9,321 nt of DNA, taken from IMG/VR virus record IMGVR_UViG_2728369185_000012; one strand, 5' to 3'. The notes below the pieces were generated by a model. That model was not told the origin of the DNA. It saw only the letters and a list, made by a program, of their open reading frames with translations, and searched no databases. Shown here piece by piece: positions 2,923 to 7,414 of the stretch (the stretch's first letter is position 1; each line of letters opens with the position of its first letter). The position numbers and the translations under genes are program-made. This stretch comes from a virus. Its lineage: Duplodnaviria; Heunggongvirae; Uroviricota; Caudoviricetes.

Positions 2923-3786
2923 ATGGATTGTGACGCTTTACAGGATATAAAAATCTCTCTTAGGTATGACGGAAAAGATGCTTTAAATCATGAAATAGAT
3001 TTGAACTGCCTAGGAGAATCCCTAAAGGGTTTTTCTAAAGTTCTCTCAACAGCAGCTTCTTTCTCTGTTACACAAAAATATAGTAAATACATTAATTATC
3101 AGGAAGTTAAGGTTTACGCACGCGAAGCAAAAGCTAACTGCTTTACTCTTGAAGCAGTTCTTAACTTCGCCACTCAGAACCAGTTGTTCTCGGGGATCGC
3201 CGCAACTATACTTGGCGCAATACTACAATATATTTTTGCGAGAAATTCTAACAAGAAAGATGAAATGAAAGCTTTGCAGCAGTCACTTGAAAAGGCCATA
3301 GAGGCACTAGGAAACAAGGATGCTGGAACCATTGATAAGTTGATCTCTTTGATTGACCGAATGGCTGTAGAGCTTCGCCCCTCTGTAAGGCAGGCAGTAT
3401 CACCTATTGGTAATACTTGCGATCAGATAAGTGTTGCAACAAATGTTGACGGCTGCCTTCTAAAAGTTAATGAGAGAGATAAAGCTGAAATTGATAGGCT
3501 TGATGATGATGAAGTTCTCGGTCTTCGTGAGTATCGTGCTTTTCTTACAGAATTTGATGCACAAAATATGACAGCTAAAATAATTTTAGATGGTGATGAC
3601 TCAAAAAAGAGAATCACTGCTGAAATTAGCGATCCAGCTGCAGGAAAGAAGAATAACCCGTATATTAGAGCTCTTAGTGCATATATATCAACCAAAGGTG
3701 ATCCATCTGCAGTATTCACTATAACCGCAAAGGCTACTGTTAAAAAAGGCCAGATAAACAGGTTATTTATTGTAGATGCGAAATGA
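2923..3786 (+). CDS. Hypothetical protein of unknown function, 287 aa, cotranscribed with cI; AT-rich moron in the slot equivalent to lambda rexA-rexB; candidate defence/exclusion gene
   Basis: Clean ORF starting 67 bp after the cI stop on the same strand, with an intrinsic terminator immediately downstream. The first 60 nt sample about 37% G+C. One hydrophobic segment ([19 protein letters not shown], about nt 3184-3240) lies between hydrophilic domains. I recognise no similarity to RexA/RexB or any other family. Confidence 0.8.
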
Positions 3787-3788
3787 TT

Positions 3789-3817
3789 TCCCCGGCCGTC
3801 GTGCCGGGTTTTCTTTT
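3789..3817 (+). terminator. Rho-independent terminator ending the cI-moron operon
   Basis: Stem CCCGGC (3791-3796), loop CGTCGT, stem GCCGGG (3803-3808), followed by TTTTCTTTT (3809-3817), directly after the stop at 3786. Confidence 0.75.
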
Positions 3818-3938
3818 GCCTCCCCTCATCACACACCGTTCAAAAAACCACCATAACCCCCGCTTCAGTTATCGCTATGCGATGCAAGTCACAAAATTAA
3901 TTCCTTTTGCTATCAAACAGTTAATATCAAAATGCATC

Positions 3939-3984
3939 AATCAATAGCAATAAGTATTGATATCACTAATAGCAATAGCTATTA
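3939..3984 (+). promoter_or_regulatory. PL-like sigma70 promoter with two operator sites (OL)
   Basis: -35 TTGATA (3956-3961), 17-bp spacer, -10 TATTAT (3979-3984). An 18-bp palindrome TAATAGC-AATA-GCTATTA (3966-3983) overlaps the spacer and -10. A second site, TCAATAGCAATAAGTATTGA (3940-3959), has TCAATA/TATTGA inverted arms. The 9-mer AATAGCAAT occurs at 3942-3950 and 3967-3975. Confidence 0.5.
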
Positions 3985-4178
3985 TCACCATGTCGCAACA
4001 ACACAACGATACGGCAACCACCTGATTCGCCGTTGCGATGACCGCTTAGATCCGCAGCTTGAATTTCAGCAGGCTCCGGGGAGTGCGAGGGGTGAAGCGG
4101 ACGCGTTAACGTCGGTGTGACCAGCTGAAATCAACTCAACACTTCATACCTCAGTCGCTTCAACGAGGCGGCTTAGTT

Positions 4179-4469
4179 ATGACAACCGGCGGCCATCCAC
4201 CGCCTGAATACGCGCAGAAGTCTCTATATGTTCAGCAGCCCAGCTTACGGGCAGGAGTTTTTATGGTTCATCAACATTACGGAACTCAGACCGTTAATCG
4301 CGGTGCCGTCCGGCCAGGTATGCTGGTTAAACACAAAGATGGTACCTGGACGGCATCAGCTAATTTGCGCGGTCGGCTTTACTTGCATCGCGGCATCGAA
4401 CGAACGTACACAAAAGATTTGCTCGTGGAGGTTTACCTGAATGGTACTGGCGGTGGTCTGAGCCACTAA
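4179..4469 (+). CDS. Hypothetical basic protein, 96 aa; first ORF downstream of the PL-like promoter (N-position); coding status uncertain
   Basis: ATG at 4179 preceded by GAGGCGG. The protein is net basic and Gly/Pro-rich (MTTGGHPPPEY...) with no Arg-rich N-terminal motif. No homology recognised. Confidence 0.3.
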   Translation: MTTGGHPPPEYAQKSLYVQQPSLRAGVFMVHQHYGTQTVNRGAVRPGMLVKHKDGTWTASANLRGRLYLHRGIERTYTKDLLVEVYLNGTGGGLSH

Positions 4470-4473
4470 CTAC

Positions 4474-4779
4474 TCACTTGTTTGGGCCGTGTGGAGCCAA
4501 AGCAAATTCAAGGTTGTAGATACTCCCATCAGGGGCTTTGAAATCAACCTCAAACCGAGATGGCGGATTGAATGGATCGAGTACATTTTCTGCTACGCAT
4601 GTAGATCTCCAATTGATATGGCCTTTGCCAAGCGAGCGAGATTCCCACCAAGCTCTCCAGGTCTGGTCTTGCGGTTGATCACTCCCCTTTTCCCTTACAT
4701 ACCAATGATTCTTTTTCGACTGCTTACCCATTTCTGCGGTTGGGTACATCGGAGAAGACTTTAACTTATCAATCAGCAT
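4474..4779 (-). CDS. Hypothetical protein, about 101 aa, transcribed opposite to the PL operon (sieB-like orientation)
   Basis: ATG at 4777-4779 with AAGGTG 6 nt upstream on the minus strand; the ORF-track start at 4788 is GTG. The protein (MLIDKLKSSPMYPTAEMGKQSKKNHWYVREKG...) has balanced composition, whereas the plus-strand ORF 4489-4764 on the opposite strand looks less protein-like. No homology recognised. Confidence 0.45.
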   Translation of the reverse strand: MLIDKLKSSPMYPTAEMGKQSKKNHWYVREKGSDQPQDQTWRAWWESRSLGKGHINWRSTCVAENVLDPFNPPSRFEVDFKAPDGSIYNLEFALAPHGPNK

Positions 4780-4917
4780 TCTAGACACCTTATTTATCAG
4801 ATTTTGAGCAAGACATAGTGTGATCCAACATTTTGATTAATCAAGCGAGTTCATTCAAACAACTATGCAGTTAACGCACTGTCTGGATCCGCACATCAAA
4901 ATTTCAGGAGTTTATCC

Positions 4918-5219: not shown

Positions 5220-6065
5220 ATGAGTACAGCACTCGCAACGCTGGCTGGGAAGCTGGCTGAACGTGTCGGCATGGATTCTGTCGACCCACAGGAACTGATC
5301 ACCACTCTTCGCCAGANNNNNNNNNNNNNNNNNNNNNNNNNNNNNNNNNNNNNNNNNNNNNNNNNNNNNNNNNNNNNNNNNNNNNNNNNNNNNNNNNNNN
5401 NNNNNNNNNNNNNNNNNNNNNNNNNNNNNNNNNNNNNNNNNNNNNNNNNNNNNNNNNNNNNNNNNNNNNNNNNNNNNNNNNNNNNNNNNNNNNNNNNCGT
5501 TCCGGTGGTGGGCGTTGATGGCTGGTCCCGCATCATCAATGAAAACCAGCAGTTTGATGGCATGGACTTTGAGCAGGACAATGAATCCTGTACATGCCGG
5601 ATTTACCGCAAGGACCGTAATCATCCGATCTGCGTTACCGAATGGATGGATGAATGCCGCCGCGAACCATTCAAAACTCGCGAAGGCAGAGAAATCACGG
5701 GGCCGTGGCAGTCGCATCCCAAACGGATGTTACGGCATAAAGCCATGATTCAGTGTGCCCGTCTGGCCTTCGGATTTGCTGGTATCTATGACAAGGATGA
5801 AGCCGAGCGCATTGTCGAAAATACCGCATACACTGCAGAACGTCAGCCGGAACGCGACATCACTCCGGTTAACGATGAAACCATGCAGGAGATTAACACT
5901 CTGCTGATCGCCCTGGATAAAACATGGGATGACGACTTATTGCCGCTCTGTTCCCAGATATTTCGCCGCGACATTCGCGCCTCGTCAGAACTGACACAGG
6001 CCGAAGCAGTGAAAGCTCTTGGATTCCTGAAACAGAAAGCCACTGAGCAGAAGGTGGCAGCATGA
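5220..6065 (+). CDS. bet: Bet (Redbeta) single-strand annealing recombinase; the central part is masked by an N-run
   Basis: The N-terminus [32 protein letters not shown] and the C-terminal 188 aa ([26 protein letters not shown]...ATEQKVAA) match lambda Bet. Reading frame is preserved across N 5317-5497. Start is 5 nt after the gam stop; the stop overlaps the exo start (ATGA). Confidence 0.9.
5317..5497. other. Run of 181 undetermined bases (N) inside bet
   Basis: Directly seen. The flanking codons are in the same frame. Confidence 1.
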
Positions 6066-7006: not shown

Positions 7007-7100
7007 NNNNNNNNNNNNNNNNNNNNNNNNNNNNNNNNNNNNNNNNNNNNNNNNNNNNNNNNNNNNNNNNNNNNNNNNNNNNNNNNNNNNNNNNNNNNNN
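7007..7100. other. Run of 94 undetermined bases (N) covering the orf63 3' end and the junction with orf61
   Basis: Directly seen. Its length is consistent with the missing orf63 codons plus a short spacer. Confidence 1.
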
Positions 7101-7336: not shown

Positions 7337-7361
7337 AGGGAGCTACAGGCTCCTTTTTTAT
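7337..7361 (+). terminator. Candidate rho-independent terminator
   Basis: Stem GGGAGC (7338-7343), loop TACAG, stem GCTCC (7349-7353), followed by TTTTTTATT. The stem is short, so confidence is moderate. Confidence 0.45.
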
Positions 7362-7414
7362 TATTCGCATTTACCCTCAAGCGTATTAACCAACAATTCA
7401 GGGATTAATGAAAG

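Follow-up and report, generated by a model that had tools for sequence, protein, structure and literature searches.

Early antitermination by N is a textbook part of lambda biology, and the locus described here raises the question of how a lambdoid phage in which no N can be recognized transcribes the early operon that starts at PL. The locus lies in a stretch of 9,321 nucleotides (IMG/VR record IMGVR_UViG_2728369185_000012), which in its entirety is referred to as the window. A sequence-only reading had pointed to a PL-like promoter followed by a structured, C/A-rich leader of about 190 nt, and it had suggested that antitermination might be provided by a divergent N encoded at 4179-4469 or by an RNA-based or other mechanism. 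The interval is OL/PL followed by the long leader RNA of the early-left operon, in a phage type that has no N. Based on the evidence given below, transcription from PL to kil most likely requires no antitermination.

Lambdoid phages without an N homologue, such as LLS, have already been reported, and put was suggested for them by default (PMC12315714). The phage is therefore a variant of a known architecture, with one small additional element, the module formed by a hairpin (HP1) and a short leader ORF. No description of this module was found in database records or in the literature, and a literature search, whose coverage did not extend to the phi80 genome paper, found no study of this leader.

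Prophage type and the early-left region

The window is the early region of a DLP12/Perceval-type lambdoid prophage at argU, a very common prophage type of E. coli. In a genome comparison its leader was 100% identical to the copy in E. coli WP2-W18-ESBL-08, where the element is located at argU, adjoins intD, emrE, and ybcK, and is therefore a full-length DLP12-type prophage. The nearest phage records are Perceval (genus Bievrevirus), 4A7, Lambda_4C10, the PhiR series, and Turner. The same leader, and no annotated N, is found in the records of Perceval, 4A7, the PhiR series, and Turner, all of which entered the databases as complete phage genomes and state a propagation host or an environmental source.

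The principal features are collected in Table 1. Downstream of the leader the order is kil, a reverse-strand ORF, gam, bet, exo, small lambda-like ORFs, xis, and int, and the early-left operon holds several small early genes without known function. Two masked runs of N (5318-5507 and 7008-7100) break bet and the orf61-like gene and make the sequence there unreadable. Within O, four or five TTACCTGATTCGGGTAAA-like repeats at 700-830 are presumed to be origin iterons. In the 24 nt that separate the cro-like from the cII-like gene there is a hairpin on the minus strand (1806-1822; GCCGC-CUAAUCU-GCGGC, then GUUAAC) that is not followed by a U tract; an 8-mer, GCGUUAAC, is common to it and to positions 4103-4110 of the PL leader, which is about chance level.

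The slot between cI and OL/PL, which holds rexAB in lambda, carries a different cargo in each relative. It encodes the DUF7946/DUF7947 proteins in the window, a SIR2-family protein in O157:H7 (locus L005, 2049-3650), a HipA-like toxin pair in PhiR5_1 (L008, 1-1465), and two genes of unknown function in Perceval (L002, 3444-4994), and the slot has the appearance of a hotspot of defence or toxin genes. The intrinsic terminator that closes the cI-moron operon is also present in Perceval.

Table 1. Positions of the main features of the window
Feature	Position	Strand	Basis
O	240-1259	minus	ORFs and profile matches
YdaT-type cII-like gene	1256-1801	minus	ORFs and profile matches
YdaS-type cro-like gene	1826-2059	minus	ORFs and profile matches
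S24 repressor (cI)	2107-2856	plus	ORFs and profile matches
DUF7946/7947 gene	2923-3786	plus	ORFs and profile matches
Intrinsic terminator closing the cI-moron operon, 5' of OL/PL	3791-3818 (terminator scan, 3791-3808)	plus	CCCGGCCGTCGTGCCGGG then TTTTCTTTTG
OL operators and PL promoter	3905-3985	plus	Promoter scan and repeat motif
Immunity-linked, C/A-rich transcript start	3992-4025	plus	Alignment across immunity types
Conserved 120-nt leader core	4026-4145	plus	Genome survey
G-free tract of 26 nt between core and HP1	4128-4153	plus	Base composition
HP1, 9-bp hairpin just 5' of the leader ORF	4153-4173	plus	Covariation
Leader ORF (MTTGGHPPP...)	4179-4262	plus	In-frame fusion to kil in the window
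HP2	4188-4192/4200-4204	plus	GGCGG-CCAUCCA-CCGCC, nearly invariant
kil, FtsZ/septation inhibitor, first gene of the PL operon	4263-4469	plus	phrog_294 profile
Sole intrinsic terminator-like site of the window's PL operon	7337-7362	plus	Hairpin of -7.4 kcal/mol then TTTTTTATTATT

PL itself is a sigma-70 promoter, TTGATA-17-TATTAT, with a -35 hexamer at 3957-3962 and a -10 hexamer at 3980-3985 that together match at 10 of 12 positions in a promoter scan. The operator motif AATAGCAAT occurs three times near PL, at 3905-3913 (inverted), 3942-3952, and 3967-3977, where it overlaps the promoter, and is found again at OR (2086-2118). These features bear out, at the level of sequence, the earlier proposal of a PL-like promoter, and the position of the -10 hexamer predicts that the transcript starts at 3992. 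In relatives of other immunity types the OL/PL stretch is swapped wholesale, with the break at the transcription start. In comparisons with L008-L011, L005, and IMG/VR loci, the joint between three immunity regions falls at 3985-3995, and a second recombination joint is located at the kil start, where two alleles about 10% apart are found. The leader behaves as a conserved linker joining exchangeable modules.

The ORF at 4179-4469 (96 aa) matches the Kil profile phrog_294 with an E-value of 1.4e-36, residues 20-95 corresponding to profile positions 4-79 of 83. It occupies the early-left position upstream of gam, bet, and exo, with only a 104-aa ORF of the other strand between it and gam, and its homologues are annotated as Kil in phi80, HK225, and other related phages. 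The ORF is Kil, and the profile match rules out the divergent N that had been proposed for it. The intervening ORF (4474-4788, minus) matches phrog_16212 (E 1e-69), a family of unknown function, and is missing in Perceval and in the O157 variant. It converges on kil; only 4 nt separate the two stop codons and a terminator is lacking, so that its transcript would run antisense into kil.

The annotation by PGAP places the start of kil at 4263, which gives a 68-aa protein preceded by an AGGAG ribosome-binding site. Because this start is the likely one, the leader is 271 nt long rather than 190; the earlier estimate holds as the distance to the ATG at 4179, which is 187 nt.

Antitermination elements and terminators along the early operons

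When the window and the complete Perceval genome were searched by tblastn with a panel of N-type proteins, no match had an E-value below 0.4. The panel consisted of the N proteins of lambda, P22, 21, and phi80, the Nun protein of HK022, and the products of the genes that HK225 and KO-TP1 carry between PL and kil; the queries for lambda, P22, and 21 were entered by hand, and the others were taken from records. All Arg-rich ORFs lie in frames overlapping known genes, and the 65 annotated genes of Perceval include Q and no N. Searches for boxA (CGCUCUUA or GCUCUUUAACAA) with up to three mismatches gave no match in 3992-4262 or downstream of PR, with counts at or below chance, and no boxB-like hairpin, with a short GC stem and a purine-rich, GNRA-like loop, was found in the leader. 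Both the absence of a lambda-type N and that of lambda-like boxA and boxB elements, which had been noted from the letters of the window, are confirmed by these searches. The ops/RfaH element and Chi are also absent. A search of Rfam 15 at a relaxed E-value returned five chance-level matches, none of them in 3819-4262; those at 700-820 are attributable to the origin iterons located there.

A similar result was obtained for put. The put RNA needs no phage proteins and works in cis, through the beta-prime zinc-binding domain of RNA polymerase. The putL/putR system of HK022, also present in HK639 and HK75, resembles the window in that N is absent, a non-coding segment directly follows PL, and terminators lie further downstream. 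A put model was built from eight sites, namely the L and R sites of HK022 and those of HK639, S9-5, CobraSix, phiEt88, PdC23, and UPF_BP1, and its consensus structure contains seven covarying pairs. This covariance model (R1) recovers six known put sites at 56-97 bits. In the window, the best score for the two-stem consensus (GAACGG...GUCGG...GGCGGGUUCAGGAUGAACGGCAAU) with filters off was 8.3 bits (E = 4.4), at a position inside cI. In contrast to HK022, the window has no match to the eight-site model, no two-stem fold above chance, and no second site, and a put-like RNA in the leader is ruled out by R1. Overall, this is a phage type without an early antiterminator of any known kind.

The terminators of the operon provide a further comparison. 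The scans covered terminators of the intrinsic type. In two scans for a GC hairpin followed by a U tract, no intrinsic terminator was found in the leader (3992-4262), and the path from PL through kil, gam, bet, and exo is free of them. All seven phages or prophages with N-region genes or put have one or more intrinsic terminators in the interval from PL to kil, and in each of these one terminator is situated directly 5' of HP1, with the form GCCGCCUAACCAGCGGC-U6 or CCCGCC..GGCGGG-U6. None of seven leaders lacking both N and put, which comprise the type found in the window and a second type from other prophages, Silvania, and Kluyvera, has an intrinsic terminator in this interval. The terminator-free path in the N-less leaders indicates that kil, gam, bet, and exo most likely need no antitermination here.

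Phages with N and nutL, such as lambda, P22, 21, and phi80, share with the window the layout of cI, OL/PL, early-left recombination genes, and xis-int, as well as the kil-proximal module and the distal terminator. They differ in possessing an N gene, boxA, boxB, and a tL1 terminator between PL and kil, all of which the window lacks. The put phages likewise keep a tL1-type terminator before the kil module, whereas the window phage does not. A parallel is provided by the N-independent variants of lambda (nin deletions, byp), which express early genes without N where terminators are absent or bypassed. While these are laboratory mutants, the N-less architecture of the window is natural and occurs in about 41% of complete E. 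coli genomes.

The one terminator-like site of the operon (7337-7362) is preceded by the orf61-like gene and followed by the ea8.5/TraR-like gene, xis, and int, and is kept in Perceval. The segment around it is 96-100% identical in lambda, 21, 933W, and many Stx phages, all of which carry N, so the distal terminator is common to phages with and without N. A need for antitermination of the PL operon, as had been presumed, does not extend to the terminator-free stretch from PL to exo and stands for the distal part beyond 7337-7362. The PR operon of Perceval also contains intrinsic terminators, after emrE and ybcK (39027-39052 and 41101-41122 in locus L007) and before ninB-Q. Together, the distal terminator of PL and the terminators that precede Q in the PR operon indicate that some read-through device may still be needed. 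A promoter-like site at 42436-42464 of Perceval, just 5' of ninB, suggests that Q may not depend on read-through from PR.

The leader RNA and its kil-proximal module

An alignment of 49 distinct versions of the leader, from IMG/VR, phage records, and genomes, describes a mosaic of three parts: an immunity-linked start at 3992-4025, the core at 4026-4145, and a kil-proximal module at 4146-4262. The O157-type variant has a different sequence over roughly the first 35 nt of the leader and retains six of the seven pairs of the 5'-terminal stem (3993-3999/4032-4038). This stem is an exact inverted repeat with a fold of -11.7 kcal/mol (z = -1.5 against shuffles). The C/A-rich tract recorded by the sequence-only reading does exist, at 3996-4022. 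However, no other part of the leader is less conserved, the O157-type variant carries another sequence in its place, and the C/G ratio of the tract, 1.4, is inside the background of the window (95th percentile, 1.8).

The core was detected in 2209 of 5426 complete E. coli genomes, always with at least 90% identity and at full length in 2208 of the 2209. No homologue of the core more than 10% divergent was found in the 5426 genomes, and a Kil scan of genome contigs recovered five loci only, none with the core. The core is 94-99% identical where the adjoining kil coding sequence is about 90% identical, and it is kept across three immunity types and two kil alleles. It contains a second inverted repeat (4063-4073/4121-4131; 11 nt, 91%) and a small hairpin (4100-4103/4110-4113). 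All three inverted repeats described previously are real, but their positions had been off by 0-3 nt each. The description of the leader as structured did not hold up. The whole leader folds no better than shuffled sequence (z = +0.17), and the same is true of the domain of the second repeat (z = -0.9) and of the core (z = +1.0). The first 150 nt of the leader have neither excess stability nor covariation, and among homologous prophages no covariation was found in the core or in the helices proposed earlier; there is little variation, and the changes are mostly one-sided and pair-preserving, with few breaks.

The leaders of other N-less kil loci, designated type B, were also compared with the core. 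Homology based on the motifs UCCGGGG, GAGGNGGUGA, and UUAACG, which had been noticed by eye, was rejected when the alignments gave z-values of 0.2-1.9 against shuffles. In local alignments, the real similarity between core-type and type B leaders is confined to the kil-proximal part. N-less PL-to-kil leaders of a second family measure 80-250 nt and are associated with several immunity types, including HK022-like operators without putL. They share only the kil-proximal motif GUUCCGCCAGCCUGGCGACAAGGGCA with the window; these loci (L024, L026-L031, L035, L062, L066, L073, and L100-L102) were compared over the 250 nt 5' of kil.

The sole element of the leader that folds better than chance is HP1, a hairpin absent from the earlier list of repeats. 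Sequence comparison supports HP1 as a covariation-proven hairpin. In 10 sequences from eight phage types, six of its nine pairs have changed on both sides and 96.7% of cells are paired, a level reached by none of 500 shuffles and compared with 35-55% in slid controls. Together, HP1 and HP2 fold with z = -2.4. HP1 was considered as an intrinsic terminator and rejected because its tail, which is UUAGUUAU here and AAGUUAU or CGUUAU in relatives, is not U-rich in the relatives.

The leader ORF follows HP1. Its start, within the sequence TTATGA (UUAUGA, with the ATG at 4179), is invariant in all 10 sequences, and in each of the eight phage types the frame stays open over 20 codons or more, encoding 20-21 aa in four of them. 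In KO-TP1 its stop codon overlaps with the ATG that follows, and in the window and in CobraSix the ORF continues in frame into the downstream gene. No consistent Shine-Dalgarno sequence precedes it. The nucleotides of HP2 are retained even where the peptide differs (L103, CobraSix), which points to a constraint at the RNA level besides translation.

The module is common to phi80, HK225, KO-TP1, HK639, S9-5, CobraSix, and an Enterobacteriaceae genome, so that N-type, put-type, and N-less phages share it, and it sits before kil or before the gene preceding kil. Elsewhere it was located at about 10340-10470 (minus) in L003, 4000-4135 in L004, 2497-2620 in L012, 3650-3780 in L094, 2500-2640 in L095, 2870-3000 in L096, and 3400-3510 in L103. 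In phi80, downstream of N (tL1A and the start of t-L1), HP1, the invariant UUAUGACAACCGGCGGCCAUCCACCG, and the short ORF are all homologous. The phi80 module follows N and an intrinsic terminator, while that of the window follows a 154-nt leader and has its short ORF in frame into kil. The t-L1 feature annotated by the phi80 depositors begins inside the module, and the Rho-dependent tL1B is annotated slightly further downstream. In HK639, a feature annotated as a terminator overlaps the module around HP2.

Possible functions of the leader

The explanation favored here, at about an even chance of being correct, is that the leader is terminator-free and N-independent from PL to kil, and that its conserved elements control the fate of the mRNA and the translation of kil. 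Once the repressor is lost, unmodified RNA polymerase would read kil, gam, bet, and exo, and the leader would act after initiation as an ordinary composite 5' UTR. The 5'-terminal stem probably shields the end of the mRNA, and HP1 together with the weakly initiated leader ORF (4153-4262) probably sets the amount of the toxic Kil. HP1 would mask the ribosome landing site of the leader ORF, to which the translation of kil would be coupled. This translational role is suggested by the anatomy of the module alone. The ea8.5-like gene, xis, and int would be reached by partial read-through of the distal terminator or from another promoter. Several observations count against this explanation. The core is more conserved than kil and complete in nearly every genome that has it, which would not be expected of an inert spacer, the terminator at 7337-7362 is present in identical form in phages that carry N, and the PR operon of Perceval has terminators ahead of Q.

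A Rho-dependent attenuator is an unlikely function, although it accounts for some features of the leader. According to this model, C-rich, G-poor patches at 3996-4022 and 4128-4153 flank a structured middle and load Rho, and translation of the leader ORF decides how much transcription reaches kil and beyond. The 187 nt before the leader ORF are untranslated and include the 26-nt G-free tract, which is a possible Rho-binding patch. The arrangement would be analogous to that of lambda tR1, which has the layout rutA-boxB-rutB, and the homologous module of phi80 stands at the start of the annotated t-L1 with the Rho-dependent tL1B nearby. However, the C/G ratios at both ends of the leader (1.3-1.8) are unexceptional, being inside the background of the window itself, and the first C/A-rich patch changes from one immunity type to another.

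It is rather improbable that the 120-nt core is a new cis-acting, factor-independent antiterminator RNA, similar to put in action but unrelated to it, that carries RNA polymerase through 7337-7362. The phage has no N, the core is positioned like putL, right after PL, its conservation over three immunity types and two kil alleles is high, and the downstream terminator is shared with phages that carry N. On the other hand, the core matches neither the put model nor Rfam and folds no better than shuffles, and its few substitutions do not covary; a candidate pair at 4073/4095, for instance, was rejected when it proved to be broken in several sequences. Moreover, no second copy of the leader or its motifs was found in the PR operon, which also meets terminators, or elsewhere in Perceval, and the PL and PR leaders share only one 8-mer. 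The high identity of the core may also reflect recent spread within E. coli. The RNA-based mechanism that had been proposed receives no positive support from these results.

Conservation without a structural signal would also fit a sequence-specific binding site, and the operon has several small early genes without known function. The core might then be the RNA or DNA target of an unrecognized phage regulator encoded elsewhere, either an antiterminator other than N or a repressor of kil. This seems quite improbable given that there is no candidate protein and no Arg-rich ORF outside frames overlapping known genes, that no motif recurs within the core, and that PR lacks a copy. Release of part of the leader as a stable small RNA, for which the argument is an analogy between this conserved non-coding segment in an operon encoding a cell-division inhibitor and DicF, which is released from the dicB operon of prophage Qin, is very improbable, as the leader has no Rfam match, including to DicF, no terminator inside it, and no stable fold in its core.

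In conclusion, one of the commonest prophage types of E. coli, along with several isolated phages, manages without N, nut, or put. Were the core nevertheless an antiterminator, it would be a third, unrelated kind of factor-independent early antiterminator, an RNA carried by prophages in about 41% of complete E. coli genomes. The comparison of terminators leads to a testable rule, according to which a terminator precedes the kil module only where an antiterminator exists, and it leaves the site at 7337-7362 as the one remaining terminator, the place of action of any further read-through device. Together, HP1 and the leader ORF would represent a conserved control element for a toxic gene, present in N-type and put-type phages as well.
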